From contig CAWBMN010000018.1 in NCBI GenBank assembly GCA_963789945.1, forward strand, positions 213,542-277,541: a stretch of DNA of 64,000 nt, written 5' to 3'. Made by a program: the position numbers and the translations under genes. The stretch is from an uncultured beta proteobacterium (GTDB taxonomy: Bacteria; Pseudomonadota; Gammaproteobacteria; Burkholderiales; JACQAP01). The notes under the pieces were generated by a model that was not told the origin of the DNA, made no database searches, and saw nothing but the letters and a program-made list of their open reading frames with translations. Position 1 is the first letter of the stretch. Every line of letters begins with the position of its first letter. Positions 14,043 through 60,299 of this stretch are shown here, piece by piece.

Positions 14043-14220
14043 GTGCGAGGTGCGAGGTGCGAGGTGCGAGGTGCGAGGTGCGAGGTGCGAGGTGCGAGGT
14101 GCGAGGTGCGAGGTGGCGAGGTGCGAGGTGCGAGGTGCGAGGTGCGAGGTGCGAGGTGCGAGGTGCGAGGTGCGAGGTGCGAGGTGCGAGGTGCGAGGTG
14201 CGAGGTGCGAGGTGCGAGGT
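14043..14220. repeat. tandem heptamer array (GTGCGAG) x25, left arm of cassette A
   Basis: Counted by hand: 10 perfect units (14043-14112), one 8-nt variant GTGGCGAG (14113-20), and 14 perfect units (14121-14218). The array starts 3 nt after the waaA stop. Confidence 0.95.
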
Positions 14221-14250
14221 AAAAGTGTAGTCCACCGGCTATCGGCCGGT

Positions 14251-14408
14251 CGCCTTTCTCTGAACATCGGGCACTGCGCACTCAGCACTGCTTTTTTTGA
14301 GCAGGCGGCGCACCGAGCACTGTGCACCGCCTTTCTCTGAACATCGGGCACTGCGCACTCAGTCTGCTGAGCACCGCGCACCGAGCACGGAGCACCGCCC
14401 TTTCTCCG
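14251..14408. repeat. degenerate right arm of cassette A with internal direct repeats
   Basis: An exact 35-nt direct repeat, cgcctttctctgaacatcgggcactgcgcactcag, occurs at 14251-14285 and 14328-14362, with a partial third copy at about 14396. It is interspersed with GCACYSM/GAGCACC heptamers, which are degenerate reverse complements of GTGCGAG. Confidence 0.8.
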
Positions 14409-14410
14409 CG

Positions 14411-15022
14411 TCAACGCTTTCCTGGCCGGCCATTGGCCGGCTGCACGACCAGGTGAACGCGTTGATCGCTGGGCCCTGTGGGAATTGATTCGACAACCTG
14501 CAGATCGAACGCCGCGGCAATCCGCGGAGTCTTTGCCTTCAGGCCCGCCAGCAAGCGATCGTAGAACCCGCCACCATACCCCAGGCGTTCGCCCGCAGCG
14601 GTGAACGCGACCCCGGGCACCAGCAGGAAATCGACCGCAGAAGGCGGCACGATGGGGCAGCGCTCCGCCGGCTCGCGGATTCCCCAGACGCCGGCGACAA
14701 GGTCACTGTCCAGGTTGCCGACTTCGCGCAATTCGAGCATGCGCGCCGCGCGGTTGATTCGCGGCAGCAACAGCTGCTTGCCGGAAGCCGCGACATCGGA
14801 ACAGAAAGCAGCGCTGTCGAACTCACTGCCGAACGATGCGTAGGCGCAAACCACTCCGGCTGCGAGATACTGCGGCAGCGCGAGCAGTTTGGCAGTGATG
14901 ATGCGCGAATCGCGGTTCCGCGTTTCCGCGTCCAGCGCATCGCGCCGCGCGATCACGCTTGCGCGCAATGCTTTCTTGGCGGACCGCAGCGCTTCTTCAG
15001 ACCCGGAATCGGCGTTGCGCAT
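14411..15022 (-). CDS. 5-formyltetrahydrofolate cyclo-ligase
   Basis: LVPGVAFTAAGERLGYGGGFYDR is the signature C-terminal motif of the MTHFS family. Confidence 0.8.
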   Translation of the reverse strand: MRNADSGSEEALRSAKKALRASVIARRDALDAETRNRDSRIITAKLLALPQYLAAGVVCAYASFGSEFDSAAFCSDVAASGKQLLLPRINRAARMLELREVGNLDSDLVAGVWGIREPAERCPIVPPSAVDFLLVPGVAFTAAGERLGYGGGFYDRLLAGLKAKTPRIAAAFDLQVVESIPTGPSDQRVHLVVQPANGRPGKR

Positions 15023-15037
15023 GCGCCGGCTCGCCGC

Positions 15038-16378
15038 TCACCTGGTATCGTCCTTGAGCAGCGCGTTGATGTCGGCCAAGTCCGCCTCGGCGAGCTTGCC
15101 CACCGCGGCCTTGAGCCGCAACTGGTTCAGGATGGTGTTGTAGAGCGCCTGCGCCAGGTCGCGCCGCGCGATGCTCAGTTGCTGCTCGGCGTTGAGCACG
15201 TCCACGGCGGTGCGCACCCCCACTTCCTGGCCCAGCTTGGTCGATTCCAGTTGCAGCTGGGTGGAGGCCACCGCTTGCTGCAGGGCCTTGACCTGGCCCA
15301 GCCCCGTGGTCACCCCCAGGTAGGCCTGGCGGGTTTGCAGGGCCGCACTTCGGCGGGCGTTTTCCAGGTCCTGGCGGGCGCGCTCCTGGTTCGCCACCGC
15401 TTCCCTGACCCGGGAGCTCACCGCGCCGCCCTCGTAGAGCGGCACATTCAACTGCACCCCGATCACCAGGGCGCGCACGTCGCTCCCAATGCCCTGCGTC
15501 GAGGAGCTGGCGTAGTTCTGGGTGAGCGAGCCCACCGCATCAAGGGTGGGCCGGTGCCCGGCACGGGCCCGCTCGACGTCGCGGGCGGCCAGTTCCAGAC
15601 TTTGCTGGGCCAGCGCGATCTGCAGGCTGGACTGGTAGGCCTGCTCCACCCAGGCGTTCATCTCGGCGGGCTGCGGGGCGTTGAGCGTGACCGGGGTGAT
15701 CAGGCCCGAGATCTCGCCCACGGGCCGGCCCACGATCTGTTCCAGGGCCCGGTTGCTGACTTCCACGTCGTTTTGCGCCCCCAGTTCCTGGGCCACCACC
15801 AAGTCGTAGCGGGCCTGGGCTTCGCGCGAGTCGGTGATGGTGGCCGTGCCCACCACGAAGTTGCGCTTGGCCTGCTCCAGTTGTTCGCCTACCGCGACCT
15901 TCTGCGATGCGATGGTGCGCAGGTTCGCCCGCGCCAGCAGCACGTCGAAGTAGGCCTGCGCCACCCGGGTGATCAGGTCCTGGGCGGCGGCATTGAGCTG
16001 GGTCTGGGCCTGGCGCACCTGGATCTTGGACTGCTCGTAGATCGCCATGTTCTGGCTGCGGTAGATCGGCTGGCTCACGGTCACGCCGTAGTTGTAGTCG
16101 TAGAAGTCGCGCCGTCCCGAAACAAAAGCGCTGTTCTCGAAAGCGGTGTCGACATCGTTGTAGTTGGTCCCGGCGCCAAAGTTGACGTTGGGCAGCAGCA
16201 GTGCCCGGCCCTGGGGTAGCCGCTCCTGGGCGCCAATGTACTGGGCCTTGGCCGAGGCGTAGGCCGCGTCCTGCAGCGTCGCCTCGCGGTACACCGCAAT
16301 CAGGTCGGCGGCGAACGCGCTCTGACCCGCTGCGACAACCAGCAACAGTGTCAACAACGTGCTTGTGGGTTTCTTCAT
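15038..16378 (-). CDS. tolC: outer membrane channel protein TolC
   Basis: Signal peptide followed by DLIAVYREA..QDAAY, and two repeated OEP halves. 446 aa. Confidence 0.9.
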   Translation of the reverse strand: MKKPTSTLLTLLLVVAAGQSAFAADLIAVYREATLQDAAYASAKAQYIGAQERLPQGRALLLPNVNFGAGTNYNDVDTAFENSAFVSGRRDFYDYNYGVTVSQPIYRSQNMAIYEQSKIQVRQAQTQLNAAAQDLITRVAQAYFDVLLARANLRTIASQKVAVGEQLEQAKRNFVVGTATITDSREAQARYDLVVAQELGAQNDVEVSNRALEQIVGRPVGEISGLITPVTLNAPQPAEMNAWVEQAYQSSLQIALAQQSLELAARDVERARAGHRPTLDAVGSLTQNYASSSTQGIGSDVRALVIGVQLNVPLYEGGAVSSRVREAVANQERARQDLENARRSAALQTRQAYLGVTTGLGQVKALQQAVASTQLQLESTKLGQEVGVRTAVDVLNAEQQLSIARRDLAQALYNTILNQLRLKAAVGKLAEADLADINALLKDDTR

Positions 16379-16485
16379 GTTCCGGATTTCCTGTTTTTCT
16401 GGTTTGTCGGTTTCCGCATTGGTGCAGCACCGGTCCAGGGAAGCGCTGACCGGTGGTCCGTGCGTTTTTCGATCGTTGACCGGAT

Positions 16486-20114
<3,629 letters not shown>

Positions 20115-20193
20115 CGGGACATGTTTGTATTCGGAAGAGGGGACCTAACACGCGCCAGGAAAATATCACTGCATCTTTTGCCAGTGACCAAAG

Positions 20194-20370
20194 GATTCGA
20201 CGCAAAGACGCCAAGACGCAAAGAAAAGCAAAAGTGGCATGTGAAACCAGCCGCCCGTTCAACGGGCCGACGGCATGTGGTCCAAGAAATCGAATGGCGA
20301 CCGATTTGACCTTGCGCAATCCCTCACTGCAATCTTGGGTTTCTTTGCGCCTTTGCGTCTTTGCGTCAAG
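20194..20370. repeat. hairpin cassette B (GACGCAAA-type arms)
   Basis: The left arm, gattcgacgcaaagacgccaagacgcaaagaaaagcaaaag (20194-20234), is inverted relative to the right arm, tttctttgcgcctttgcgtctttgcgtcaag (20340-20370). The core is about 105 nt. Confidence 0.85.
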
Positions 20371-21250: not shown

Positions 21251-21773
21251 AGGGCAAGGATGAAGGATGAGGGATGAAGGATGAAGGGAAAAGCAGGGGC
21301 ACCATGCCGAGGGGTTCCGCCGAACTATTGGTTCGAACAAAGCGATTTGCCCTGAGCGTTATCAATCTTTACTCGGCGTTACCGGGCAACACGGTCTGTC
21401 AGGTGCTTGGCAAGCAGCTGTTGAGGTCCGCTACATCCGTCGGCGCGCATTACCGGGAAGCGCAGCGCGCAAAGTCAAGGCCGGACTTTATAAGCAAGGT
21501 CGAAGGAAGTCTTCAGGAACTTGACGAAACGCTCTATTGGCTGGAACTGCTGGAAGAATCCGAAACGGCCGATCGCGCATCAGTCACCCCGTTGAAGTCT
21601 GAGGCCGGGGAACTACTTGCGATATTCGTAACCATCGCGAAGTCTGCGAAAAGAACGTTTACGAAGGAGAAGTAGAGATGTGCCGGTTCGCCTTTTTCGT
21701 TTCATCCTTCATCCTTCATCCTTCATCCCTTCATCCTTGCCCCTCATCCTTCATGCTTCCGCCTTCATCCTTG
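21251..21773. mobile_element. hairpin cassette C (AAGGATG-type arms) carrying a four-helix-bundle ORF
   Basis: The left arm has aaggatg x4.7 (21256-21288). The right arm has ttcatcc repeats plus ccttcatccttgcccctcatccttcatgcttccgccttcatccttg (21701-21773). It lies between the uppP stop and the rhodanese stop. Confidence 0.85.
21274..21675 (+). CDS. four-helix-bundle protein (23S rRNA intervening-sequence protein / Avd-like family)
   Basis: QLLRSATSVGAHYREAQRAKSRPDFISKVEGSLQELDETLYWLELL matches the family signature I recall. The first codons, MKDEGK, are encoded by the repeat arm. An alternative start is ATG 21304. Confidence 0.85.
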   Translation: MKDEGKSRGTMPRGSAELLVRTKRFALSVINLYSALPGNTVCQVLGKQLLRSATSVGAHYREAQRAKSRPDFISKVEGSLQELDETLYWLELLEESETADRASVTPLKSEAGELLAIFVTIAKSAKRTFTKEK

Positions 21774-25778: not shown

Positions 25779-26288
25779 GCAAGAGCAAGGATGAAGGCGG
25801 AAGGATGAAGGATGAAGTAAAGCAGAACGTCAAGCGCGATCTGGTTGGACGCACCAGACGATTCGTGCTTGAAGTGATCATGTTTTACTCGACTCTCCCA
25901 AGCACCACGGTGTGCCAGGTGTTGGGGAGGCAGTTGTTGAGATCAGCGACTTCGGTTGGTGCCCAATACCGTGAGGCCCAACGAGCCAAATCCGGCGCCG
26001 ATTTCGTTAACAAGATTGAAGGCGCACTTCAAGAACTCGATGAAACGGGATATTGGCTGGAGTTACTCGAAGAGTCGGGAAATGCGGATGTAATTGCAGT
26101 TAAACGACTGCAGCTAGAGGACCAGGAATTGCTAAGAATCTTTGTCACAATCGCAAAGTCTTCAAAGAAACAATCGAGAAAGAGGTACCACGTGAAATAT
26201 CACAAGCCTTCATCCTTGCCCCTCATCCTTCATCCTTCCGCCTTCATCCTTGCCCTTCATCCTCCATCCTTCCGCCTTCATCCTTGCC
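25779..26288. mobile_element. hairpin cassette D (AAGGATG-type arms) carrying a four-helix-bundle ORF, inserted between ntrB and ntrC
   Basis: The left arm, gcaagagcaaggatgaaggcggaaggatgaaggatgaag (25779-25817), starts at the first nt after the ntrB stop. The right arm (26207-26288) is a duplicated ccttcatccttgcc...ccttccgccttcatccttgcc block ending 1 nt before the ntrC ATG. Confidence 0.85.
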
Positions 26289-26293
26289 TATGA
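25805..26293 (+). CDS. four-helix-bundle protein (23S-IVS/Avd-like) with an arm-encoded C-terminal tail
   Basis: QLLRSATSVGAQYREAQRAKSGADFVNKIEGALQELDETGYWLELL; I judge it roughly 60 percent identical to the 21274 copy by eye. There is no stop at the position homologous to the 21675 stop. It reads through the right arm ([28 protein letters not shown]), and its TGA overlaps the ntrC ATG (ATGA at 26290-26293). Confidence 0.8.
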   Translation: MKDEVKQNVKRDLVGRTRRFVLEVIMFYSTLPSTTVCQVLGRQLLRSATSVGAQYREAQRAKSGADFVNKIEGALQELDETGYWLELLEESGNADVIAVKRLQLEDQELLRIFVTIAKSSKKQSRKRYHVKYHKPSSLPLILHPSAFILALHPPSFRLHPCL

Positions 26294-27716: not shown

Positions 27717-27973
27717 ACTCCTCACCACGAAGGCACGAAGCTATCGCACACGAAAGTAAAGTCTTACACAAAGCCACGAAGAAGAGCGACAAGAAAGCGA
27801 CTCGTGTAAGAAGCTCACACTTGGCGAATGTCGGCCATCAAAGTCGAACGTGGGCGGATCAAAGGATCACGCAACTCACCAAGCTTCGATCCCCAATTGG
27901 TTTGAGAATTCGTTCTTCTTCGTGTTTCTTCGTGTCCTTCGTGCCTTCGTGGTGAGCCTTTCGTGAGATAGCG
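27717..27973. repeat. hairpin cassette E (CACGAAG-type arms)
   Basis: Left arm ctcaccacgaaggcacgaag (27721-40) plus degenerate units extending to about 27790. Right arm ttcttcttcgtgtttcttcgtgtccttcgtgccttcgtggtgag (27913-56). It lies between the convergent ntrC and xth ends. Confidence 0.85.
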
Positions 27974-32774: not shown

Positions 32775-32973
32775 TCTCACCACGAAGACACGAAGGCACG
32801 AAGAAAAACATTCAAAGTGAATGACTGAACATCGATTCTCGCCAGCACACACTGTCCAAATATATCGGCCGCTTGAGATCAACATCTCCGCATTTGAAGT
32901 TCACTGCACGCCAAAAAGTCAGGTTGGCTAATTTTTTTCGCTCTTCTTCGTGCCTTCGTGTCTTCGTGGTAAG
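32775..32973. repeat. hairpin cassette F (CACGAAG-type arms)
   Basis: Left arm tctcaccacgaagacacgaaggcacgaagaaaaa (32775-32808). Right arm ttcttcgtgccttcgtgtcttcgtggtaag (32944-32973). It sits in the pyrB / pyrC' junction. Confidence 0.9.
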
Positions 32974-37118: not shown

Positions 37119-37600
37119 TTTCCGTGCTCCGCGAAATTCCGACGGGTCCGGAGAGCCGGTTGCGGTTGGCGCCTTTGGGAATGCGGTTGTTGAGCCTCGC
37201 GTACGAGGGCGTGCTGCTGTTCGGCATCCTGTTTGTTGCGTCCTACCTGTTCGTCGGCCTTGCACGCGATGCACAGACCGGCATGCCACGTCTGGTGTTC
37301 CAGGTCTACGTGCTCGCGGTGTGCGGCGCCTACTTCGTGTTCTGCTGGGTGCGCAGCGGACAGACCCTGCCGATGAAGACCTGGCGCATTCGACTGGTTA
37401 CGCAGCAGGGCAAGCCGCTGGCGGTCGGCCGGGCCTTCCAGCGTTATCTGCTGGCCGTGCCAAGCGTACTTTCGGGGATCGGCGTGCTCTGGGCCCTGGT
37501 GGATCGCGACCGCCTATTCCTGCACGACCGGCTGGCAAAGACGCGCATCGTGCGCGTTGACGAACCAAGGGCCGAGGGACGAGGGGCGAGGGACGAGTAA
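37115..37600 (+). CDS. RDD family membrane protein
   Basis: LSLAYEGVLLFGILF, GQTLPMKTWRIRLV, and LHDRLAKTRIV. The proposed TTG start at 37115 overlaps the upstream stop (TTGA). The last codons, PRAEGRGARDE, are encoded by cassette P's arm. Confidence 0.7.
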   Translation: MISVLREIPTGPESRLRLAPLGMRLLSLAYEGVLLFGILFVASYLFVGLARDAQTGMPRLVFQVYVLAVCGAYFVFCWVRSGQTLPMKTWRIRLVTQQGKPLAVGRAFQRYLLAVPSVLSGIGVLWALVDRDRLFLHDRLAKTRIVRVDEPRAEGRGARDE

Positions 37601-37659
37601 AAAGCAAGCACGGTTCCGTTTTGGACTTGACTCGAACCTCGTACCTCGGTCCTCGGACC
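37569..37659. repeat. mini hairpin cassette P (GGNNCGA-type arms)
   Basis: Left arm gggccgagggacgaggggcgagggacgag (37569-97), a 33-nt centre, and right arm ctcgaacctcgtacctcggtcctcggacc (37631-59). The CGAG and GG blocks pair, and the middle nt of each unit mismatches. Confidence 0.7.
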
Positions 37660-41391: not shown

Positions 41392-41401
41392 GAGTCAAAT
41401 G

Positions 41402-41652
41402 CTTACCACGAAGACACGAAGGACACGAAGAAGCACGAAGAAGGGCGAAATGTAAATGACTCGTCAAATGCACAATTGTCGACCTTTGGTTGTTTCGGGT
41501 GTGACGACGACAAACCCAAATATTGGAGGCATGCGATAATCCGGGGTTGGCTGAGAGTACGCTTGCTCATCGTTGACCATCAAATATTCTCTTCGCTTTT
41601 CTTCGTGTCCTTCGTGTCTTCGTGGTGAGCATTCTGGTTTTTTCGTGGTGAG
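41402..41652. repeat. hairpin cassette G (CACGAAG-type arms)
   Basis: Left arm cttaccacgaagacacgaaggacacgaagaagcacgaagaagg (41402-44). Right arm ttctcttcgcttttcttcgtgtccttcgtgtcttcgtggtgag (41587-41629), plus a second terminus ttttttcgtggtgag (41638-52). It sits in the pepA / holC junction. Confidence 0.9.
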
Positions 41653-43361: not shown

Positions 43362-43930
43362 CTAGGGAAGCTCTGATCAAGTTCCGCGACGCGCGTTGCG
43401 CCAGGTGCGGATGACTGCTAGGGACGCCGGAGCGTGGAAGAGGGGCCCCTGGGGATCTGACCGCGTAGGCGTCCCGACGAGTGCACATGATCGGCGTGCG
43501 ATGCGAGCGACTCCGGGTCGCATCCCCGGGCCAAGGCCAGCGGAACCTGCTCCGCCTACGCGCTCGCGCTCCGCAGATGCGGCTGAAGCCCCAGCAAGGA
43601 GCGTAACAACGCAGGCGCCGCACCTGGCGCAACCCAATGACATTTCGACTCTTTAGAGGGACCGGGCGATTCGGGCCGCGTGCCGCAGCGCAGAACAGGG
43701 GCCCCTCCGGGATGTGACCGCGGAGGCACGCACAAGCACGCGCACATTCGGCACGATGCATCACGCTCTGGGTCGCATCCAAGCACACGACGCTTGGAAC
43801 CTGCTCCGCCCTGAGCGGGCGCTCTGCGTCGGCTCCTCCTTATGTAGGCCGGCTACACGGCGTCCTAGCAGTCATCCGCGACCTGGTCGCCTCGATCGCG
43901 CGTCGCGGAACTTGATCAGAGCTTCCCTAG
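43362..43930. mobile_element. non-autonomous element (MITE) with IS5-family-like termini
   Basis: Terminal inverted repeats of about 67-72 nt: 43362-43428 (ctagGGAAGCTCTGATCAAGTTCCGCGACGCGCG...GGATGACTGCTAGG) versus 43859-43930. CTAG is present at both outer ends. No transposase ORF lies inside. There is an internal imperfect direct repeat of about 155 nt. Confidence 0.5.
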
Positions 43931-43996: not shown

Positions 43997-46820
43997 ATGG
44001 AACTCGCCAAGAGCTTCGAACCCAGGGACATTGAAGTCCGCTGGTATCCGGTCTGGGAATCACGCGGTTACTTCTCGACCCGCCCGGACCACGATCGCCC
44101 CACCTACTGCATTCAACTGCCGCCGCCGAACGTCACCGGCACGCTGCACATGGGACACGCGTTCCAGCAGACGCTGATGGACGCACTGATCCGCTACCAC
44201 CGCATGCGCGGTCTTAACACCAATTGGGTGGTCGGGACCGATCACGCTGGCATTGCCACCCAGATCGTGGTCGAGCGCCAGTTGGAGTTGGAGGGCAAGA
44301 CCCGCCACGATCTGGGCCGGGAAGAGTTCATGGAACGTGTTTGGGAGTGGAAGAGCCAGTCCGGCGCAACCATCATCCGGCAGATGCGCCGGCTCGGCGC
44401 CTCCGCGAACTGGGACTACGCCGACACGGAAGGCCAGCGCGCCGGCTACTTCACCATGGACGCGAAAATGTCGCACGCGGTGATCGAGGTTTTTGTGCGC
44501 CTGCACGAGCAGGGCTTGATCTATCGGGGAAAGCGGCTGGTGAACTGGGACCCGGTTCTGGGAACGGCGGTCTCCGACCTGGAAGTGGACAGCGAAGAGG
44601 AAGACGGCCGGATCTGGGAGATCCGCTATCCGCTGGCTGATGGATCAGGCAGCCTGGTGGTCGCCACCACCCGTCCGGAAACGATGCTCGGCGACGTGGC
44701 CGTGGCGGTGCACCCGGATGACGAGCGGTACAAGAAACTGGTTGGCAAACAACTGCGGCTGCCGCTCACCGACAGAACCATACCGGTTATCGCGGACGGG
44801 TACGTGGACCCCGAGTTCGGCACAGGCTGCGTCAAGATCACGCCCGCCCATGATTTCAACGACTATGCGATGGGACAGCGACATGGTTTGTCGCCGATTG
44901 GCGTGATGACGCTGGACGCGAGAATGAACGACAACGCTCCGGCACCCTACCGCGGGCTCGACCGCTTCGAAGCGCGCAAGCGCGTGATCGTGGACCTGAA
45001 CAAGCAGGAACTGCTGGTCTCGGAGAAGCCGCACAAACTCAAGGTGCCGCGATCGGGACGCACCAGCGCGATCGTCGAACCGATGCTGACCGACCAGTGG
45101 TTCGTGAAAATGGAAGGGCTGGCCCGGCACGGCCTGGACGCGGTCGCCGAGGGCAGCATCAAGTTTTTTCCTGACCACTGGACCACGACTTATAACCACT
45201 GGCTGGAGAATATCCAGGATTGGTGCATTTCACGCCAGCTCTGGTGGGGCCACCAGATCCCGGCCTGGTACGACGATGCCGGCAACGTATATGTAGGCCG
45301 GAGCGAGGCAGAGATTCGGGAGAAGTACGCCTCTCTCCTCTCTCCTCACTCCTCACTGCGTCGCGACAGCGACGTCCTCGACACCTGGTTCTCCTCGGCG
45401 TTGGTGCCGTTCACGTCGCTCGGCTGGCCGGAGAAAACCAAGGACCTGGACGTCTTTCTTCCCTCCTCGGTGCTGGTCACCGGGTTCGACATCATTTTTT
45501 TCTGGGTCGCGCGCATGGTCATGATGACCCTGCACTTCACCGGCAAAGTGCCGTTTCGACACGTCTATATCAACGCACTCGTGCGCGATGCCGACGGCCA
45601 GAAAATGTCGAAGTCGAAGGGAAACACGCTCGACCCGCTCGACCTGATCGACGGCATCTCGATCGAAGACTTGGTGGCCAAATCGACAGTGGGATTGCTG
45701 CGTGCCGAGCACAGGCAGAAGATCGAAAAGTACGTGCGCAGAAACTATCCGAACGGCATTCCGGCATTCGGCGCCGACGCACTCCGCTTCACCTTTACCT
45801 CGCTCGCCACATTCGCGCGAACGCTCAATTTCGATCTGAGCCGCTGCGAGGGCTACCGCAACTTCTGCAACAAACTGTGGAACGCCAGCCGTTTCGTGCT
45901 GATGAATTGCGAGGGCAAGGACTGCGGGCTCGATGAGCATGCCCCGGAGGATTGCGGCCCCGGGAGTTACCTCGACTTTTCCCAGGCCGACCGCTGGATC
46001 GTCAGCCAGTTGCAGCGCACCGAGGCAGAAGTCGGTAAAGGCTTTGCCGACTACCGCTTCGACAATGTCGCCAGCGCCATCTACAGGTTCGTCTGGGACG
46101 AGTACTGCGACTGGTACCTCGAGATCGCGAAAGTGCAGTTGCTGAATCGGCGCCGAGGCGCAGCAGCGCGCCACGCGGCGCACGCTGCTGCGGGTGCTGG
46201 AAGCCACGTTGCGGCTCGCACACCCGGTCATCCCGTTCATCACCGAGGAACTTTGGCAGAATGTTGCGCCGCTGGCCGGCCGCCATCCGGGCGGCGAGGC
46301 CTCGATCATGGTTCAATCCTATCCGGTATCGCAGCCCGAGCGTATCGACACAAAGGCGGAAGCCTGGGTCGCCCAGCTCAAATCATTGGTCGAGGCCTGC
46401 CGCGCGTTGCGCGGCGAAATGTCGCTTTCCCCGGCGCAGCGGGTGCCGTTGGTCGCCGCCGGGAACGCGGCCATGTTGCGCGAGTTCGCCCCCTGCCTGA
46501 AGGTGCTGGCGAAGCTTTCTGACGTCGAAGTCGTCGACGCGCTGGCACCGACAACGAATGCCGGCGCCGCGCCGGTGCGGATCGTCGGCGACTTTCGTCT
46601 GATGCTGAAGATCGAGGTAGACGTCGCTGCCGAGCGAGAGCGCCTACACAAAGAGATTGCGCGGCTCGAAAGCGAAATCGCCAAAGCTAGCAGCAAGCTC
46701 GCCAACGCCGGTTTCGTGGAGCGCGCACCGGCAAACGTCGTCGCCCAGGAAAAAGAGCGGTTGTCCGGCTTCACCGGCACGCTGGAGAAAATCAGGGCGC
46801 AACTCGCCACGCTTACCTGA
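43997..46820 (+). pseudogene. valS: valine--tRNA ligase with a broken reading frame near the C-terminal domain
   Basis: The HIGH (TGTLHMGHA) and KMSKS motifs are present. After ...[11 protein letters not shown] the track ORF turns into Arg/Ala nonsense. The true continuation, [36 protein letters not shown]...coiled coil, is in ORF 46194..46820. The frames switch at about 46148. Confidence 0.85.
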
Positions 46821-46838: not shown

Positions 46839-47378
46839 CTCACCACGAAGGCACGAAGAACACGAAGAAACACGAAGAAGAACAGGAATCCTTAAATTAG
46901 AGGCCAACCGTTGAACGTGTCTTCACCGCTGTCGAGGGAAATCGAGGAATTGTCTCGAAATCTGGTCGATTCTGCGTTTAAAGTCCACCAGACTCTTGGC
47001 CCAGGCTTGCTTGAATCGGTCTACGAAGCCTGCCTGTGTGTAGAACTTAAGAAACGAGGCATCAGATACAAGTCTCAGGCACCGATACCTCTCGTCTATG
47101 AAGGTGTCTCTATCGAAGCAGGATTGCGTCTCGATCTGCTTGTCGAGGGCAGCATTGTTCTCGAAATCAAATCAGTCGAGAGGCTGTTGCCGGTTCATCA
47201 AAGTCAGTTGTTGACGTACTTGAAACTTGCCGATTTGCACTTGGGCTTGCTCATCAATTTCAATGTTGCCATGTTCAAGCAAGGCGTGCGACGGATCATT
47301 CGCTGAGCAATGCCATCGCTCTTCGTTCTCTTTGCTTTTCTTCGTGTTTCTTCGTGTTCTTCGTGCCTTCGTGGTGAG
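46839..47378. mobile_element. hairpin cassette H (CACGAAG-type arms) carrying an intact GxxExxY ORF
   Basis: The left arm 46839-46880 and right arm 47337-47378 are complementary at 41 of 42 positions by hand count. It lies between the valS stop and the MFS start. Confidence 0.9.
46911..47306 (+). CDS. GxxExxY protein (PD-(D/E)XK nuclease-like)
   Basis: FKVHQTLGPGLLESVYEACL contains GxxExxY. RLDLLVEGSIVLEIKSV fits D...ExK. QLLTYLKLADLHLGLLINF is the family C-terminus. The gene is AT-richer than its surroundings. Confidence 0.85.
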   Translation: MNVSSPLSREIEELSRNLVDSAFKVHQTLGPGLLESVYEACLCVELKKRGIRYKSQAPIPLVYEGVSIEAGLRLDLLVEGSIVLEIKSVERLLPVHQSQLLTYLKLADLHLGLLINFNVAMFKQGVRRIIR

Positions 47379-47395: not shown

Positions 47396-48640
47396 ATGAA
47401 CCATGCTTTAAGGGCGTTCAGGCACCGGAACTTCCGCCTGTTTTATGTCGGCCAGGCAATTTCGCTGATCGGCACCTGGATCCATCAGATTGCACTCGCC
47501 TGGCTGGTGTACCGCACCACCGGCTCCGGCTTCCTGCTGGGGCTGGTCACTTTCTGCAACCAGGTTCCGCTGCTTGTCGTCATGCCGTTTGCGGGCCTGC
47601 TCAGCGACCGCTACGACCGGCGCAGGATTCTTATCATCGCGCATGCGCTGGCGGCGCTGCAGGCGCTGGCGCTGGGCATCCTCACGCTGTCGGGCGCAAT
47701 CCAGACGTGGCAGATTCTGCTGCTCGGACTCCTGTACGGCGTCATCATGGCTTTCGAAACACCGGCCCGGCAGTCGCTCATCAGCCAGATGGTTGCATCC
47801 AGGGAGGATCTGCCCAATGCCATCGCGCTGAACTCATTCCTGATGAACAGCGGCAGACTGGTCGGCCCGTCGATCGCGGGTCTGCTGCTGGTGTTCGTGA
47901 GCGAAGGCTGGTGCTTTCTCGTCAACGCGGTGAGCTTCTTCGCGGTAATCGTAGCGGCAGTCATGATGAAGCTGGAGCCGAGAAAAGTGGCAACCAGAAC
48001 CGTATCGCTGCTTGCGGGGCTGAGCGAGGCGGCGGGCTATGCGTGGAACGCGCGCCCCATCAGGGTGTTCCTGTTGCTGGTGGCATGGCTGAGCCTGACG
48101 GCGACACCGTATCCGGTGCTGATGCCGATTTTCGCGAAGGACGTGTTCCACGGCGGCGCGCATACCCTGGGTTTTCTGGTCGGCTGCGCAGGTCTCGGTG
48201 CCGTGATCGGCACCGGGTTCCTTGCCACGCGGCCGAACGTGCTGGGATTGAGCAAATTGATCGCGGCGACCTCGGCGACGGCCGGCATAGCGCTGTTCCT
48301 GGTCGGGGTATCGAAGATCTACTGGCTGTCGCTGTTGCTGATGGCCTGCCTGGGATTCGGCATCATCGTCACCGCCGCTTCGGTGAACATGATGCTGCAG
48401 ACCATGGTGGAGGAGGACAAGCGCGGACGGGTCGTCAGTTTCTACGCGATGGCCTTCCTGGGCGTGGCGCCGTTCGGTGGATTGATGGCCGGCGCGCTGG
48501 CCAGCCACATCGGCGCACCGGCGACCGCGATGATCAGCGGCGGTTGCTGCCTGCTGGGCGCGTTACTGCTTTCCCGCCACCTGCCCGCCATTCGCACCGA
48601 CCTGCATCGCGCTCTGATCCGATTGCCAGATGAAACTTGA
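47396..48640 (+). CDS. MFS transporter
   Basis: 414 aa, about 12 hydrophobic segments, and an N-terminal FRHRNFRLFYVGQAISLIGTW motif typical of MFS_3-type exporters. Confidence 0.85.
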   Translation: MNHALRAFRHRNFRLFYVGQAISLIGTWIHQIALAWLVYRTTGSGFLLGLVTFCNQVPLLVVMPFAGLLSDRYDRRRILIIAHALAALQALALGILTLSGAIQTWQILLLGLLYGVIMAFETPARQSLISQMVASREDLPNAIALNSFLMNSGRLVGPSIAGLLLVFVSEGWCFLVNAVSFFAVIVAAVMMKLEPRKVATRTVSLLAGLSEAAGYAWNARPIRVFLLLVAWLSLTATPYPVLMPIFAKDVFHGGAHTLGFLVGCAGLGAVIGTGFLATRPNVLGLSKLIAATSATAGIALFLVGVSKIYWLSLLLMACLGFGIIVTAASVNMMLQTMVEEDKRGRVVSFYAMAFLGVAPFGGLMAGALASHIGAPATAMISGGCCLLGALLLSRHLPAIRTDLHRALIRLPDET

Positions 48641-48651
48641 AAAACGCAAAT

Positions 48652-48856
48652 TTCACCACGAAGGCACGAAGACACGAAGAAAATTCGGAAGAATGATTTC
48701 TGCAGCGGGCCGATGTCGAAATCAGCCGGATAACGGACCTTATCCAACCCCTTCAGATTGTGCCCTTTGCCGCCTTGTCTTTCTTCGTGTCTTCGTGTCT
48801 TCGTGGTGAGACTTTGACTTTTCGTCTTGCGGATGGCTTCGTGCCTTCGTGGTGCG
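48652..48856. repeat. hairpin cassette I (CACGAAG-type arms) with an extra outer terminus
   Basis: Left arm 48652-48683 and right arm 48778-48810. A 46-nt extension (48811-48856) ends in a second cttcgtggtgcg terminus. Confidence 0.85.
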
Positions 48857-50410: not shown

Positions 50411-50688
50411 TCTCACCACGACGCTACAAAGCCATACGCAAAACGAAAAATCAAAGTCTCACCACGAAGACACGAAGAACACGAAGAAAACCTCAACAAA
50501 AATCCTGAAATTGGGCTTGCGGTGCGGAACACACTATCCACAAGTGTCCAGCAACTGAGAGACCTCGATTGGTGAGCGCTGCGCAATCGGGTTCGCGAGG
50601 GCAGGTAACTCTGTGCATTCCCGCGTTCAATCGATATCGTCTGGCCTTCCTTCGTGTTTCTTCGTGTTCTTCGTGTCTTCGTGGTGAG
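50411..50688. repeat. hairpin cassette J (CACGAAG-type arms) with an extra outer terminus
   Basis: An outer terminus plus 46-nt extension at 50411-50456 is the inverted homologue of 48811-48856. The inner left arm is 50457-50491 and the right arm is 50646-50688. Confidence 0.85.
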
Positions 50689-51525: not shown

Positions 51526-51716
51526 TCTCACCACGAAGGCACGAAGACACGAAGAAAAGCGGCAAATGACATTTGTTCAAGGCCTTTGCCCACATGAAAC
51601 TTGAACGTGTCGAAAACAACGAGATGTCCGGAAATATCGATTGTTGTTTGGGTACCGCGAAGTCCATTCTTTCTTCACGTCGAAAGCCTTCTCGTCTTCG
51701 TGTCTTCGTGGTTAAC
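51526..51716. repeat. hairpin cassette K (CACGAAG-type arms)
   Basis: Left arm tctcaccacgaaggcacgaagacacgaagaaaa (51526-58). The right arm, 51667-51716, is partly degenerate and ends in cttcgtggttaac. It sits in the trpD / trpC junction. Confidence 0.85.
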
Positions 51717-51732: not shown

Positions 51733-52759
51733 TCACGCCTTCAGTTTCTGGGTGAAGGCGATGAACTGGTCGAGCTTGGCTTTCGCGGCGCCGCTGGAAA
51801 TGACTTCAAGCGCCTTCTGCACGCCGGCTTCGTGGCTGTCCGCAATACCGGCTGCATAGATTGCCGCGCCGGCATTGAGCGCCACGATGTCGCGCGCCGG
51901 GCCGGGCTTGTTCGATAGCGCTGCAACGAGCATGTCCCTGGACTCAGCGCCGTCTTTGACCTGAATCCCGGAAAGATCGCTGGTTTGCATACCGAACTGT
52001 CTTGGGTGAATCGTGTACTCGCGCACTTCATCGTTCTTGAGTTCGCCGACCAGCGTTTCGCCGGCCACCGAGATCTCGTCCAGCCCCTCCGTGCCGTAAA
52101 CCACCAGGACATGGCGGCTGCCCAGCCGCTGCAATACCCGCGCCTGGATACCAACGAGGTCGGGGTGGAACACGCCCATGAGCTGGTTCCGGGCTCCGGC
52201 CGGATTGGTGAGGGGCCCGAGGATGTTGAACAGGGTGCGCACGCCCAACTCGCGCCGAACCGGTGCCGCATGCTTCATCGCGCTGTGATGGTTGGGAGCG
52301 AACATGAATCCCACGCCGATCTGGTCGATGCATTGCGCCACCTGCGCTGGAGTCAGGGCAAGGTTCACGCCCAGCGCCTCGAGCACGTCGGCGCTGCCCG
52401 ATTTGCTGGAAACCGAGCGGCCACCGTGCTTTGCGACCTTTGCGCCGGCCGCTGCCGCGACGAACGCAGCTGCAGTGGAAATATTGAAGGTGTGCGCGCT
52501 GTCGCCACCGGTGCCGCAGGTATCCAGAAGGTGGGCATGGTCGGCCACCTGCACCTTGGTCGAGAACTCGCGCATGACCTGCGCGCGCTGCGGCGATCTC
52601 GCCGATGGTCTCCTTTTTCACCCGCAAACCGATGATGATCGCGGAGATAAGCGTCGGCGACATCTCGCCGTTCATGATCTGGCGCATCAGCGCCAGCATC
52701 TCGTCGTGGAATATCTCGCGATGCTCGATAACCCTTACCAATGCTTCCTGCGGCGTCAT
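51733..52759 (-). pseudogene. trpD: anthranilate phosphoribosyltransferase with a broken reading frame
   Basis: The N-terminal 59 aa ([13 protein letters not shown]...[10 protein letters not shown]) are in ORF 52028..52759. The rest ([18 protein letters not shown]..) is in ORF 51733..52575. The switch lies in the (GC)4 run at 52581-52588. Confidence 0.85.
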
Positions 52760-52827
52760 ACGGTCTCCTGAACACTGTGGCAGATCGCAAAGCGGGGAAA
52801 CTTCATCACAGGACCAAAAGGATATGC

Positions 52828-53041
52828 CTTACCACGAAGGCACGAAGACACGAAGAAGGCGAGTGATCGTATATTCTCGACCCGATACCGCCGTGGCGCT
52901 GATGGGACGTTCGACCCATTTGCGGTCAACTTGGAACGGACCACTCCGAGATCGAAGGTCCCGCGATGCAGACACTGAAATGAGGCATAGCAGTTTAACG
53001 TGCTCATGCATTTCTTCGTGTCTTCGTGCCTTCGTGGTGAG
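52828..53041. repeat. hairpin cassette L (CACGAAG-type arms)
   Basis: The left arm 52828-52858 and right arm 53011-53041 are complementary at 29 of 31 positions by hand count. It sits in the trpG / trpD junction. Confidence 0.9.
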
Positions 53042-53062
53042 ATATCTGATTTTGACCAGCCA

Positions 53063-54414: not shown

Positions 54415-54441
54415 TACAGTTCCTGCCTTCCCCCGACTAAA

Positions 54442-54834
54442 CTCTCACCGCCTTATTCAAGCGCGCTTGCATTCAGGCCCCTTCGCTCCAGGGTCGTTAC
54501 CCGCTTCATCGCTACTACGGGCCTGTCCGACTCCCGGACCGAGTCCACCGGCGGTTTTTTCTTCCCGGGGCTTCACCGGGCGGATCGCTCCACCGCAGTG
54601 TCCGAGTCGCTACCTGCTGAACGGGAAATTCGCAGTGTAAACTCCTTTCAGTTCACAAGATCAGCCAGGCTTGGCCTGGCGCACCTGAGGGCGCGGAGGA
54701 AAGCCAAAAGCAGAGAATTCGAGAGGCCAACCAGGTCGCGCTGCTTCGCTCTGCACCAGGTTTGTTTTCTTGTTCCCTTGGCTCTTGCTATTCTTGCGGT
54801 TCCCCCGCGTCCCCTGCGTCCTCCGCGGTGAGAG
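54442..54834. repeat. degenerate cassette Q (one clear ACGCRGGG-type arm)
   Basis: The right end, ttcttgcggttcccccgcgtcccctgcgtcctccgcggtgagag (54791-54834), has the tandem-unit plus GGTGAG terminus architecture. At the left end only ctctcaccgcc (54442-52) is recognisable. Confidence 0.35.
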
Positions 54835-54839
54835 CTTCC

Positions 54840-56315: not shown

Positions 56316-56449
56316 GACGAACTCCTGAAACTGCGAAAACGATGAAACGGAAACCGGCGACGCTCAGATGCAGCGCCAGAACGCAGACGGGCGCCACCAG
56401 CGCCAGCCGGCCCCGATTTCCAGCCTCAGGTTTTCGAGTTTCAAAAAGT

Positions 56450-57139: not shown

Positions 57140-57172
57140 CAGATATGGCGGCAAATACAGAAAGCCGGAATG

Positions 57173-57336
57173 CTCACCACGAAGACACGAAGAAGACCGG
57201 ATGCTTCAGCAGAGACCAATCGTCAGAGTACGTCGTAGCTGAAACCGGGGTTTCATTGAAAGCTTACCTGCAGGGAATTTCCATGGCCAAAGCGGCTACT
57301 TCGCAGTTCTTCGTGTCTTCGTGCCTTCGTGGTGAG
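57173..57336. repeat. hairpin cassette M (CACGAAG-type arms)
   Basis: The left arm (57173-57196) has 2 units and the right arm (57307-57336) has 3 units. The core is homologous to that of cassette N. Confidence 0.85.
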
Positions 57337-57347
57337 ACGTACAGTTC

Positions 57348-58007: not shown

Positions 58008-58134
58008 GGGCGATTCGATCGGCGGCAGTGTCCACGGGCGAAGGAACGCGGCATTGTAGCAAACAGGGCCCGGCCATCTGCCGTTGGAAGACGTGACGTG
58101 GCCGACCTTGCCGCGTTTTCGAGTTTAATGTCCA

Positions 58135-58527: not shown

Positions 58528-58546
58528 TCCTTCAAGAAACCACCAG

Positions 58547-58690
58547 TCTCACCACGAAGGCACGAAGAGACGAAGGAAACCGAATGCCTAAGTGGAGACC
58601 AACCGTCAAACTGCGTCGTAGCTGAAACCGGGGTTTCATTGAATGCTTACCTGCACGGAATTTCCATAGCCAAAGCGGCTACTTCGCGAG
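58547..58690. repeat. hairpin cassette N (CACGAAG-type), right arm missing
   Basis: Left arm tctcaccacgaaggcacgaagagacgaaggaa (58547-78). The core (58579-58690) aligns with the core of M with about 13 mismatches in about 110 nt by hand alignment. No cttcgtg arm follows. Confidence 0.8.
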
Positions 58691-58701
58691 AAGCGCGTGG
58701 A

Positions 58702-58803
58702 CTAGTTTTTCTTGTCGCGGTCGCGCTTGCGCGGCAGCGTCCACCAGACAATGAACACGAACAGCCCCAGCGCCAGAACCCCTTCGAGAATCAGCCAGGA
58801 CAT
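58702..58803 (-). CDS. possible 33-aa membrane peptide
   Basis: My translation is MSWLILEGVLALGLFVFIVWWTLPRKRDRDKKN: one hydrophobic helix followed by a basic tail. It is too short for the ORF track. Confidence 0.3.
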   Translation of the reverse strand: MSWLILEGVLALGLFVFIVWWTLPRKRDRDKKN

Positions 58804-58880
58804 AAGCAGTAATGGCGCAGGGCGCGCGGCGTTGCTTTGTTATACTCGCAACCGAAACAGTACATGCAGAAGATCACCCA

Positions 58881-60116
58881 ATGCAGAGAAGACTATGGCA
58901 GGCACTCACCCTGTGTTTCCTGCTTGCCAGCGGTTGTGCGAGTCTAACCAGGACCATACCGCCAGCGCCACCGGCTCCGTTTGAACCGCTTCCCGAAACG
59001 CCGACGCCCGTCGTCTCCGCGCCTGAATCTGCACCGGCCCCCGCCCCCCAAGCGCCATCTAGTCCACAGGTCTTCCAGATGGCCGATTGGAGCGCGTTGC
59101 CCGAGTGGGGCAGCGACAAACTTGTCGAGGCATTGCCGGCGCTGGTGCTTTCCTGCGGCAGCCTGAAATCCCAGCCCGAATGGCAGTCGGCTTGTGCCGC
59201 GGCGGCGCAAATACCTGGCGAAGATCCGGCGGCTGTGCGGCAGTTCTTCGAGTCCAGCTTCGTTCCCCATGCCGTCCACAATGCCGATGGAAGCTCGGAG
59301 GGCCTGGTCACCGGATACTATGAGCCGCTGCTGCGCGGCAGCCGCACGCCGACCAGGCTGTATCGCTTTCCGGTGTATGGCGTTCCGAACGATCTGCTGG
59401 TCGTGGACCTCACGGAAACCCAACCGAATCTCAAAGGCCTGCGGCTGCGCGGCCGGCTGCATGGAAACAAGGTGGTGCCCTATTACACGCGCGCGGAAAT
59501 CGAGCGCGGCGAAGCCGCGGTGCGTGGCCGCGAGATTCTCTGGGTGGACGACGCGGTTGAGCTTTTCTTCCTGCAAATCCAGGGGTCGGGCCGGGTAAAG
59601 TTGGCTAACGGAGAAATCGTGCGCATCGGCTTCGCCGAGCACAACGGGCACCCCTACAGGTCCATCGGGCGTGTACTGGTCGAACGGGGGGAATTGCCGC
59701 AGGACAAGGCGTCAATGCAGGGAATCAAGCAATGGGGAAAGCAGAACCCGGACTTGCTGCCGCTGCTGCTGCAGCAAAATCCCGCGTTCGTGTTTTTCCG
59801 CGAGATGCCCTCTTCGTCGCCCGGGCCGGTGGGCGCGCTGGGCGTCGCCCTCACCCCCGGCCGCAGCATCGCGGTCGATGCTTCTGTCGTGCCGCTGGGT
59901 GCCCCGGTTTTTCTTTCCAGTACCTGGCCGCTTTCAGCCCGGCCGCTGAACCGCCTGGTACTTGCACAGGACACCGGCAGCGCGATAAAGGGCGCGGTGC
60001 GGGCAGATTTTTTCTGGGGTTTCGGCGACGAGGCCGGGCAGATCGCCGGACGCATGCGGCAAAGCGGCCGGATGTGGGTGCTCTATCCACGCGGCTTCGA
60101 GCCTCGCCTGCCCTAG
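58881..60116 (+). CDS. mltA: membrane-bound lytic murein transglycosylase A
   Basis: Lipobox LLASGC after MQRRLWQALTLCF, then the MltA/3D-domain motifs (VTGYYEP, FFLQIQGSGR, AQDTGSAIKG). Confidence 0.85.
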   Translation: MQRRLWQALTLCFLLASGCASLTRTIPPAPPAPFEPLPETPTPVVSAPESAPAPAPQAPSSPQVFQMADWSALPEWGSDKLVEALPALVLSCGSLKSQPEWQSACAAAAQIPGEDPAAVRQFFESSFVPHAVHNADGSSEGLVTGYYEPLLRGSRTPTRLYRFPVYGVPNDLLVVDLTETQPNLKGLRLRGRLHGNKVVPYYTRAEIERGEAAVRGREILWVDDAVELFFLQIQGSGRVKLANGEIVRIGFAEHNGHPYRSIGRVLVERGELPQDKASMQGIKQWGKQNPDLLPLLLQQNPAFVFFREMPSSSPGPVGALGVALTPGRSIAVDASVVPLGAPVFLSSTWPLSARPLNRLVLAQDTGSAIKGAVRADFFWGFGDEAGQIAGRMRQSGRMWVLYPRGFEPRLP

Positions 60117-60141
60117 CCGGCAACGGGAATAAAGCCAAACT

Positions 60142-60299
60142 TCTCACCACGAAGGCACGAAGACACGAAGAAAACCCCGGAACCAATCAGTAGAGAAAAT
60201 GGGGCCGGCGGAACTAAGGGGACACTACCTGCGAGCGTTGATTGCTTTGGTAGAACTTCGACTCTGCATTTCTTCGTGTCTTCGTGACTTCGTGGTGAG
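60142..60299. repeat. hairpin cassette O (CACGAAG-type arms)
   Basis: The left arm 60142-60174 and right arm 60269-60299 are complementary at 30 of 31 positions by hand count. It lies between the convergent mltA and tonB-like ends. Confidence 0.9.

Follow-up and report, generated by a model that had tools for sequence, protein, structure and literature searches.

Hairpin cassettes with tandem-heptamer arms at gene 3' ends in an uncultured betaproteobacterium: a candidate family of foldback insertion elements related to rRNA intervening sequences

In a 64,000-nucleotide stretch of DNA from an uncultured beta proteobacterium (GenBank assembly GCA_963789945.1, contig CAWBMN010000018.1, positions 213,542 to 277,541 of the forward strand), which we call the window and number from its first letter, protein-coding genes, among them the run pepA-holC-valS and a Porin_4 porin gene, are set apart at 17 loci by repeat cassettes that we label A to Q. 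This gene order, the porin and homologues named Betaproteobacteria or Burkholderiales agree with a proteobacterial source. The original prediction, made from the letters of the window, had described all 17 as hairpin cassettes. At 14 of the loci this description was borne out by tandem-repeat search, inverted-repeat search and RNA folding: a 5' arm of two to five tandem, purine-rich units of 7-10 nt is followed by a variable core and by the reverse complement of the arm. Cassettes A and Q are partial and N has a single arm. The location assigned to the cassettes stood for the whole set, since all 17 lie between protein-coding genes and adjoin a stop codon, beginning 0-128 nt past it (median about 11).

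Tandem Repeats Finder (TRF) recovered the repeat arrays at the positions given below, and an inverted-repeat finder recovered the arms, which are 84-100% complementary and form terminal inverted repeats; those of H, J, O and L are examples. We also used a strict detector, which looks for an identical 7-mer repeated at 7-11 nt spacing together with a reverse-complement array no more than 800 nt away. It found 11 distinct cassettes in the window (C, E, F, G, H, I, J, K, L, M and O), whereas 50 Markov shuffles of the window yielded not one. Cassettes B, D and P are genuine too, with degenerate units, a kind to which the strict detector is blind, while a relaxed periodic detector is insensitive to variable spacing; because the strict detector misses degenerate-unit elements, the cassette densities reported below for other genomes are lower bounds. 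At 14 of the 17 loci the RNA folds with z ≤ -3.9 and is closed by a terminal stem of 13-47 bp, as expected from the proposal that the arms form stable stems; the exceptions are A (z -2.2), Q (z -2.1) and N (z -0.4). The 14 stems together contain 460 Watson-Crick pairs, with mismatches at 39 positions, and the stems are long enough to be substrates of RNase III.

Eleven elements share a terminus of the CACGAAG type. Read from the outside inwards, it consists of a semi-conserved A/T-rich CAAAnT, the sequence CTCAC, CACGAAG units each followed by one to three purines, and a run of A; in H, I and L the A/T-rich part is itself inverted within the single element. The spacer bases between units had been described as mirrored between the two arms of each element. 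They are mirrored at 14 of 18 positions in the window, but in 52 elements taken from many genomes no more than 50% are, permutations giving 33%.

Along the window, cassette E (27717..27973; inverted repeat I19; z -6.6) has CACGAAG arms, of which the left is interrupted, and a degenerate outer terminus on the right. F (32775..32973) lies between pyrB and a dihydroorotase-like gene, with CACGAAG arms of 30 nt that are 97% complementary (I13). G (41398..41652), between pepA and holC, has CACGAAG arms of 44 nt and 91% (I2) and a duplicated right terminus. H (46839..47378) begins 18 nt past the valS stop codon and encloses a GxxExxY gene between CACGAAG arms of 46 nt and 96% (I1; z -9.6, with 47 terminal pairs). 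I (48639..48856) has CACGAAG arms of 44 nt and 84% and a second, outer right arm (I4, I20). In J (50411..50688) the inner arms, at 50458-50489 and 50657-50688, are perfect over 32 nt (100%, I7) and a degenerate outer arm lies on the left. K (51526..51716; z -5.0) was called by the strict detector and has CACGAAG arms, as has L (52815..53054), whose arms of 43 nt and 86% (I3) carry the A/T-rich outer extension. M (57173..57336; I21) has CACGAAG arms and a core 92% identical to that of N (58547..58690), which consists of a left arm and a core with no right arm and is therefore a truncated copy of M. O (60142..60300; z -7.2) occupies a convergent spacer, with CACGAAG arms of 32 nt and 97% (I11). 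In E, G, I and J degenerate second termini stand outside the intact arms, as though younger elements had entered older ones, which suggests that occupied sites were hit by insertion repeatedly.

The remaining cassettes are built of other units. The left array of A (14043..14408), called by TRF as 25.4 copies of GGTGCGA, faces a weak right arm of the GAGCACC type; the element fills a convergent spacer, leaving 3 and 2 nt to the stop codons on either side. B (20194..20370; z -6.4) has arms of GACGCAAA (CGCAAAG) units, 38 nt long and 84% complementary (I9), around a core of 93 nt. C (21251..21773; I8/I12; z -3.9), which begins 0 nt after a stop codon, and D (25779..26288; I6/I10; z -9.6), which lies between an ntrB-like and an ntrC-like gene, both have AAGGATG arms around a gene for a four-helix-bundle protein. 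P (37569..37659; z -4.1) is a small hairpin of GGGNCGA units (called by TRF) in a convergent spacer. Q (54442..54834) has only one tandem arm, a right arm of CCCCGCGT-type units (TRF 54801-54827), with CTCTCAC/GTGAGAG termini and no tandem left arm. On the minus strand, the interior of Q (54492-54654) is matched weakly by the Rfam family group-II-D1D4-4 (21 bits, below the gathering score of 49; E 0.015), probably by chance.

The units admit some readings that we considered and set aside. A CRISPR array is rejected since the repeats are inverted, not direct. AAGGAUG resembles the heptamer of CsrB; CsrA-titrating arrays were nevertheless set aside because other unit types have no GGA and the arms are base-paired. 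Runs of G occur only in P (GGGNCGA), in the variant found at site D of a near-identical strain (GGGGAAT) and in the right arm of Q (the reverse complement of ACGCRGGG); the CACGAAG, AAGGATG, CGCAAAG and GGTGCGA units contain no tract of three G, and they therefore lack the four or more tracts of at least three G that define a G-quadruplex.

Cores range from 30 to 460 nt. Three are genes: those of C and D encode four-helix-bundle proteins (Avd-like, TIGR02436/PF05635) and that of H a GxxExxY protein (TIGR04256/PF13366), so the two cargo families named in the original prediction were confirmed by profile matches. The gene in C (21274..21675, plus strand) matches the family with E values of 2e-22 and 1e-16 and PDB entry 2RLD with E 3.5e-20; that in D (25805..26293, plus strand) matches with 9e-21 and 3e-15, and the tail of its open reading frame (ORF) extends into the right arm. 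The gene in H (46911..47306, plus strand) matches TIGR04256/PF13366 with E 1e-42 and PF13366 with E 2.5e-42. The other elements lack an ORF, and their cores are non-coding stretches of 30-170 nt that are mutually unrelated except for the M/N pair; a comparison of cores among the elements and with other loci gave no match but this one. Hidden Markov models built from 120 homologues per cargo family, run on six-frame translations, found no cargo remnant in any core beyond the three intact ORFs. Rfam at gathering threshold returned a single tRNA for the whole window and no rRNA; the tRNA gene, at 63166-63239, is unrelated to the cassettes, as is a purine-only, (AAG)n-like repeat (GAGGAAAAGAAGAAGAAAGAAGAA, 1.9 copies) at 63872-63917 within the ORF 63506-63937.

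In the window (21274 and 25805) and in two loci of other genomes, L207 and L220 (about position 1201 in each), the ORF of the four-helix-bundle gene starts at the ATG of the last left-arm unit, AAGGATGAAG or GGGATGAAG. Since the ORF begins in the last AAGGATGAAG unit, the arm provides both a Shine-Dalgarno (SD)-like sequence and the start codon; and since the start lies inside the left arm, pairing of the arms would bury both. The PF05635 proteins have a homologue in Avd, which serves diversity-generating retroelements as an accessory protein (PMC10053308).

An alignment of 22 GxxExxY sequences, 38-83% identical, has invariant residues H26, G30-P31-G32, E35, Y38, R73, D75, E85, K87, Q99 and Y103. 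E35, D75 and E85-x-K87 form a PD-(D/E)XK core, accompanied by a Q99-x3-Y103 motif, and we regard the protein as a predicted nuclease. We take the QxxxY motif to be of the RecB/Cas4 kind. The family is very large, with 22,253 clusters at 50% identity (E ≤ 0.001). Many representatives of 260-295 amino acids (P0241-P0256) contain two tandem copies of the domain, which suggests that the protein works as a dimer. Sequence searches found no relative of it in the PDB, the AlphaFold2 model is too poor for fold comparison (pLDDT 61) and Foldseek returned nothing significant; for want of a PDB relative and of a good model a finer nuclease assignment is not possible. No transposase or integrase was found among the scanned window proteins, nor any member of the RAYT (repetitive extragenic palindrome-associated tyrosine, Y1, transposase) family; what cargo-bearing copies encode is PF13366 or PF05635.

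The cassettes are not spread evenly over the spacers between genes. Using a curated gene list and spacers of at least 60 nt, we found that 7 of 7 convergent and 10 of 18 co-directional spacers are occupied, and none of the 7 divergent ones (hypergeometric P = 0.002 for the last, by our own arithmetic). A, C and D fill their spacers exactly, from stop codon to start codon. Some cassettes lie inside operons (ntrB-ntrC, nuoA-nuoB in another genome and pyrB-pyrC'). The stems are followed on both strands by tails enriched in T (3.2 T per 8 nt against 1.5 in the background), and 9 of 21 tails have at least four T, against 6% in the background. A scan of the window for consensus terminators did not call the cassettes, whose cores far exceed the 3-8 nt loop that an intrinsic terminator has beside its short G+C-rich stem and U-tract, and at site I there is a separate canonical terminator.

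The gene valS is covered by two overlapping ORFs, 43997-46522 and 46194-46820 (Pfam), and the gene at 51733-52769 likewise by two, though it aligns continuously with its counterpart in the related contig L122. As such split ORFs reflect either frameshifts or errors of long-read assembly, the exact counts of repeat units in the window may be affected as well. In the spacer between holC and valS, a perfect 34-nt inverted repeat, CTAGGGAAGCTCTGATCAAGTTCCGCGACGCGCG (43362-43395 and 43897-43930), encloses 501 nt; it is the only copy in the window, and the spacer is about 1.3 kb longer than that of L122. Having a single copy and no tandem units, it is a different kind of element.

Several cassettes differ in a near-identical strain. 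A metagenome contig (L121/L202) covers 8.6-26.7 kb of the window at 99.1-99.7% identity and differs from it almost only in the elements. Array A has 25 units in the window and about 15 in this contig, where its right arm is rearranged; exact counts there call for caution because the contig has the single-base indels typical of long-read assemblies. The core of B is identical. In C the left arm is identical and the right arm is re-patterned at the level of units. At site D, the 510-nt AAGGATG cassette with its four-helix-bundle gene is replaced by an unrelated hairpin of 142 nt with arms of GGGGAAT/GGGAAAC heptamers, the swap beginning inside the stop codon and ending at the ATG. In a more distant Burkholderiales metagenome-assembled genome (MAG; L207/L209) the four-helix-bundle cassette is kept at the ntrB-ntrC site, with other numbers of units. 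The arms are hypervariable.

A second related contig, L122, has a nucleotide identity of about 76% and keeps synteny with the window over 24 kb. It has elements of the same type at five shared sites (P, G, H/I, K and L) with other arms: most consist of CTCACC-GCAGAGGA-CGCAGAGGA, those at the P site are GAACRGT units, and the CGCAGAGGA-armed elements include the one at G and one at K that carries a GxxExxY gene. The cores at these orthologous sites have no similarity to those of the window above that of shuffles. All five elements of L122 thus occupy sites that are also occupied in the window, for which chance gives C(7,5)/C(14,5), or about 0.01 by our own arithmetic. L122 has no element at F or at J. 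Its genes on either side of site F overlap as ATGA, and we therefore conclude that the F element separated a translationally coupled gene pair. Together the two comparisons reveal that elements at fixed sites are gained, lost and replaced and that their copy numbers vary, contrary to the identical occupancy in all relatives that would have spoken against the original prediction.

Two further observations were made in L122. H, the MFS_3 transporter gene that follows it (47396-48640) and I are jointly absent, a single element standing between valS and the porin terminator, so a gene flanked by two cassettes may be gained or lost as a block. At about 11512-11545 and 15838-15872, in opposite orientations, a 29-nt insert, TACCCTCGCG(C/T)AGCGTGGAGTACCCTTTT, splits the CGCAGA|GGA unit in two elements, and looks like a very small secondary insertion that targets heptamer arms.

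Outside such relatives the locus is poor in cassettes. Among 80 pepA-syntenic loci of other proteobacteria (1.03 Mb) we found no strict cassette, five relaxed ones and one cargo gene, which is that of L122; the cassettes of the window are therefore a lineage-specific expansion. In L203, a related contig, CACGAAG elements are dense and a stretch of 4 kb contains three GxxExxY paralogues, one arm variant there having CACGGAG units on one side and mirrored CTCCGTG units on the other. Near its dense cassette cluster L203 also has, at 15648-16487, a gene of PF01797 (Y1 transposase, IS200/RAYT-like), and its termini near 8440-8480 and 9225-9245 read GGTGAGATGTAG, with the GTAG tag typical of repetitive extragenic palindromic (REP) elements; a GTAG next to the terminus was seen in L203 only. 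A link to RAYT-type mobilisation is possible.

The arm sequence itself is found far beyond the Burkholderiales, and the repeats are accordingly not confined to the window. A 21-base pattern of the CACGAAG arm, CACGAAGNCACGAAGNCACGAAG, occurs in species-representative genomes at no fewer than 120 loci in at least 14 phyla, where about 0.3 matches are expected by chance (our own arithmetic). Among the matches listed are loci in Verrucomicrobiota, Planctomycetota, Acidobacteriota, Nitrospirota, Alpha-, Beta- and Gammaproteobacteria, Bacteroidota, Gemmatimonadota, Chloroflexota, Myxococcota, Thermodesulfobacteriota, Actinomycetota and candidate phyla. Of arms with three or more units in the same set of matches, 82 of 147 (56%) have an inverted partner within 900 nt, and the cores so enclosed fall into two length classes, most of them of 6-125 nt and others of 410-510 nt. 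In L042, L104, L111, L115 and L119 the long cores prove to be GxxExxY genes. Other units at these loci fit CRCRRAK (CACAGAG, CGCGGAG, CGCAGAG, CGCAAAG and CACGGAT), and nested elements occur. The one rRNA operon with an arm among the sampled loci belongs to a Chthoniobacteraceae MAG (L105, about 290-320): the operon is complete, and a solo TTTCACCACGAAGGCACGAAGACACGAAG arm follows its 5S rRNA gene some 75 nt downstream, outside any rRNA.

Retrieved by protein similarity, four-helix-bundle genes also lie between inverted tandem heptamers, namely GAGGGATGA between nuoA and nuoB (L220), AAGGATG (L207 and L210) and AGGAGAC (the planctomycete locus L115). Arm type is thus matched to cargo type: the four-helix bundle is accompanied by SD-like units, GxxExxY by CRCRRAK units. 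An exception is the intervening sequence (IVS) in the 23S rRNA of Coxiella, which combines a four-helix bundle with GACAGAT units. An origin in plasmids was rejected, as neither the concatenated cores nor element H had plasmid matches, and so was an origin in phages, as only one GxxExxY relative appeared in IMG/VR and the viral contigs with arm patterns carried no cargo genes.

The Coxiella IVS is among the known structures closest to the cassettes. In C. burnetii it has a terminal stem of 28 bp, a PF05635 ORF, an AG-rich, SD-like stretch and two to three tandem GACAGAT copies in the 5' arm, in a number that varies between strains, and RNase III cleaves it where the first repeat begins (PMC4990558). 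PF05635 ORFs have also been reported in rRNA insertions of bacteria of the candidate phyla radiation. The cassettes have in common with the ORF-bearing 23S IVSs of Coxiella and Leptospira the long terminal stem, the PF05635 (S23p) ORF in the loop (here in C and D only), the SD-like stretch before it and a sporadic, horizontally scattered distribution, and with that of Coxiella also the tandem heptamers of the 5' arm, variable between strains (25 against about 15 units in A; C re-patterned). The prediction that the cassettes are IVS-like is supported in part, in that all testable architectural features are common to them and the Coxiella IVS. The two differ in location: IVSs sit in helix 9, 25 or 45 of 23S rRNA, the cassettes between protein-coding genes. 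Furthermore, most cassettes have no ORF, one carries GxxExxY, and RNase III cleavage is established for the IVS and putative for the cassettes. The accompanying statement that both cargo families occur in 23S IVSs is documented for PF05635 and could not be verified for GxxExxY.

Similar heptamers have been reported from intergenic DNA. In Xanthomonas, GGGAATC heptamers of 2-26 units make up 70-75 convergent inverted pairs in each genome; about 28 nt separate them from the upstream ORF, they are transcribed, their positions are not conserved between sister species, and Nostoc has a GGGGAYT counterpart (Rehm et al. 2015, PMC4692102). Rehm et al. read them as G-quadruplex motifs with no link to cargo, IVSs or mobility, whereas most units described here cannot form a quadruplex. 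Heptamer hairpins of Geobacter are listed as putative regulator sites (PMC2700814), and intergenic heptamer repeats have been reported with no mechanism in Beggiatoaceae and Nostoc. The elements are thus less novel than had been supposed, as heptamer pairs and hairpins were known (PMC4692102, PMC2700814), albeit with no tie to cargo or IVSs; and full-text searches, which covered few subscription journals, yielded no paper in which heptamer hairpins are connected with cargo genes, with IVSs or with a family of dispersed elements.

Other known elements share the general design. Like REP elements and the REPIN-RAYT system, the cassettes are small extragenic hairpins at gene 3' ends and in convergent spacers, present in many copies, with lineage-specific expansions and non-autonomous copies in great excess over a single-gene 'autonomous' partner. 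REPs, however, are imperfect palindromes of 20-40 nt with a GTAG or CGTC tag, whereas the cassettes have tandem-unit arms with CAAAnT-CTCAC-CACGAAG termini; the partner of REPs is a Y1 (HUH) transposase, that of the cassettes a PD-(D/E)XK nuclease or four-helix-bundle protein; and copies of a REPIN share their whole sequence, which the cassettes do not. With Correia/NEMIS and other MITEs (miniature transposable elements bounded by inverted repeats) they have in common terminal inverted repeats and an intergenic location, Correia/NEMIS being co-transcribed; Correia hairpins are substrates of RNase III. MITE copies are homologous over their full length and have target-site duplications, whereas the cassettes share only their arms and no duplication was seen. 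The FB and Galileo elements of Drosophila have long inverted repeats made of variable numbers of short tandem repeats, and a centre that is variable or absent; as they are eukaryotic, kilobase-sized and moved by P-like or other transposases, the likeness is one of design, with no evolutionary link. Integron cassettes, too, combine small promoter-less ORFs with a hairpin-forming site, read-through expression and exchange at fixed sites, but they have one attC at the 3' end of the ORF, IntI and attI, none of which was seen here, while our elements have two mirrored arms around each core and are dispersed among housekeeping genes.

From these observations, we hypothesize that the cassettes are copies of a widespread bacterial family of selfish foldback insertion elements that occupies the niche of 3' untranslated regions (UTRs), and that the ORF-bearing IVSs of rRNA are those members that landed in rRNA. 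We hold this view with about as much confidence as doubt. The arms of such an element close a stem of 20-50 bp around the core. On this hypothesis a cassette would be transcribed together with the upstream gene and would fold into a long duplex, which RNase III would cut as it does in the Coxiella 23S IVS; because of this cut, insertion between cistrons, in operons or in rRNA would be tolerable. ORF-bearing copies would be the autonomous forms, whose proteins recognise their cognate arms. The predicted GxxExxY nuclease may cleave the arms or the extruded hairpins, with repair of the break copying or replacing elements, and cargo-less copies may ride in trans on the proteins of the autonomous ones. 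Slippage and conversion between the arms would keep the two arms alike, while cores drift or are replaced. The colonisation may have run in either direction, and it is just as possible that rRNA IVSs are exceptional instances in which an intergenic element came to rest in rRNA.

Several findings weigh against this hypothesis. The main weakness is that cargo-less cores are unrelated to each other except in M and N, from which it follows that copy-and-paste of whole elements, as in MITEs, must be rare; moreover, these cores carry no detectable remnant of cargo. The scanned proteins of the window include no transposase or recombinase of a known mobile-element class. We saw no target-site duplication, as no direct repeat is visible at 22 termini or at the F and D junctions; the outer boundaries are fuzzy, since an A/T-rich extension is also inverted. 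No arm lies inside an rRNA gene in the sampled loci, and 41% of arms in other genomes, among the matches listed, are without a partner. Mismatches in the stems are G.U in 11 cases and A.C in 9; these counts give no sign of a G.U bias on the transcribed strand and so do not demonstrate that selection acts on the RNA. Finally, the full occupancy of convergent spacers and the sites shared between species fit a function for the host equally well.

Such a function is the strongest rival explanation, although we judge it rather unlikely. In this case the cassettes would be punctuation selected by the host, as bidirectional terminators, as stabilisers of 3' ends against exonucleases or as RNase III sites that uncouple cistrons, the heptamers binding a host factor and the ORFs being passengers. 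Apart from the convergent bias and the constant position just past a stop codon, the T-enriched tails on both strands would be accounted for, and the location of all five L122 elements at window-occupied sites, with different arms and cores, would be a case of structure kept while sequence turns over. REP elements occupy this same niche in E. coli. On the other hand, a near-identical strain has exchanged a 510-nt cassette for an unrelated one of 142 nt, two sites are empty in L122, at one of which the cassette split an overlapping ATGA pair, and the syntenic loci of other proteobacteria manage almost entirely devoid of cassettes. Termination would be polar at those cassettes that lie inside operons, the terminator scan does not call the cassettes, and site I has a terminator of its own. 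Finally, the same arm in 14 or more phyla demands either horizontal spread or a universal factor, of which none is known.

Alternatively, the cassettes may have arisen in place, with slippage expanding repeats beside existing hairpins or terminators and hairpin-templated repair copying one arm to the other, so that nothing moves. Unique cores, copy numbers that vary between strains and the many solo arms elsewhere are all compatible with this, and heptamer simple sequence repeats (SSRs) are over-represented in bacterial intergenic DNA generally (as cited in PMC4692102, PMC4679880). We nevertheless consider it quite improbable, given that the same arm of about 30 nt, including the non-repeated CTCAC terminus and the A/T-rich tail, is found at eleven loci, that it recurs in distant phyla and that arms are specifically tied to two protein families. 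In addition, the spacer bases differ between units, so the arrays are not simple products of slippage, and the M/N duplication includes the core.

A third alternative is that the arms are synthesized de novo at DNA breaks: an activity like that of telomerase would add CTCAC(CACGAAGR)n to both 3' ends, and joining of these with filler or cargo would yield the arrangement X-core-revcomp(X), a reverse transcriptase with the Avd-like protein being the candidate. This would explain why the purine-rich arm is always 5' on both strands, why the unit length is irregular (CACGAAG with one to three purines, as in stuttering synthesis) and why the arms are often unequal in unit number and partly mirrored while the cores are unrelated; the homology of PF05635 to Avd, the partner of the reverse transcriptase in diversity-generating retroelements (PMC10053308), also fits. 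We regard it as very improbable, as there is no reverse transcriptase in or near the examined elements, the proposal is derived purely from geometry and has no known precedent in bacteria, and the arms of the window are mirrored more than independent synthesis predicts (14 of 18 positions). Lastly, that the cassettes are ordinary MITEs of an insertion sequence with a conventional DDE transposase elsewhere in the genome is hardly credible, for in spite of their terminal inverted repeats, small size, intergenic location and multiple copies, they have no visible target-site duplication, non-homologous cores, arms that are tandem arrays of variable length, full-length copies that carry a PD-(D/E)XK nuclease or four-helix-bundle gene, and no plasmid matches.

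The element family is real, dense and unusual, although its parts are already known separately as IVS-like and as REP- or MITE-like foldback structures. What appears to be undescribed is the unifying picture of intergenic IVS-like cassettes with cognate heptamer arms, an arm sequence found across the bacteria and replacement between near-identical strains. A bolder version of our hypothesis, which we offer only tentatively and with more doubt than belief, is that there is one pan-bacterial class of exchangeable hairpin cassettes at gene 3' ends, in which each cargo protein recognises arms of its own heptamer and cassettes are replaced from stop to start codon on the timescale of strains by a nuclease-driven or arm-synthesising mechanism unlike known transposition; the 23S IVSs, the heptamers of Xanthomonas and cyanobacteria and many intergenic heptamer SSRs would then be the same thing.

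If our hypothesis is true, GxxExxY/PDDEXK_3 and four-helix-bundle/23S_rRNA_IVP, two very large families of unknown function, would be given a concrete place in the genome and, in their own arms, a substrate open to test. The origin of the ORF-bearing intervening sequences of rRNA would be explained, and the reports of heptamers from Xanthomonas, Nostoc, Geobacter and Beggiatoaceae would be tied together. That contigs carrying either cargo are mostly shorter than 2 kb suggests that the arms break metagenome assemblies. For the bacteria that carry them, the cassettes would often make strains differ in their operon spacers and 3' UTRs, among other things by inserting between genes that are translationally coupled.

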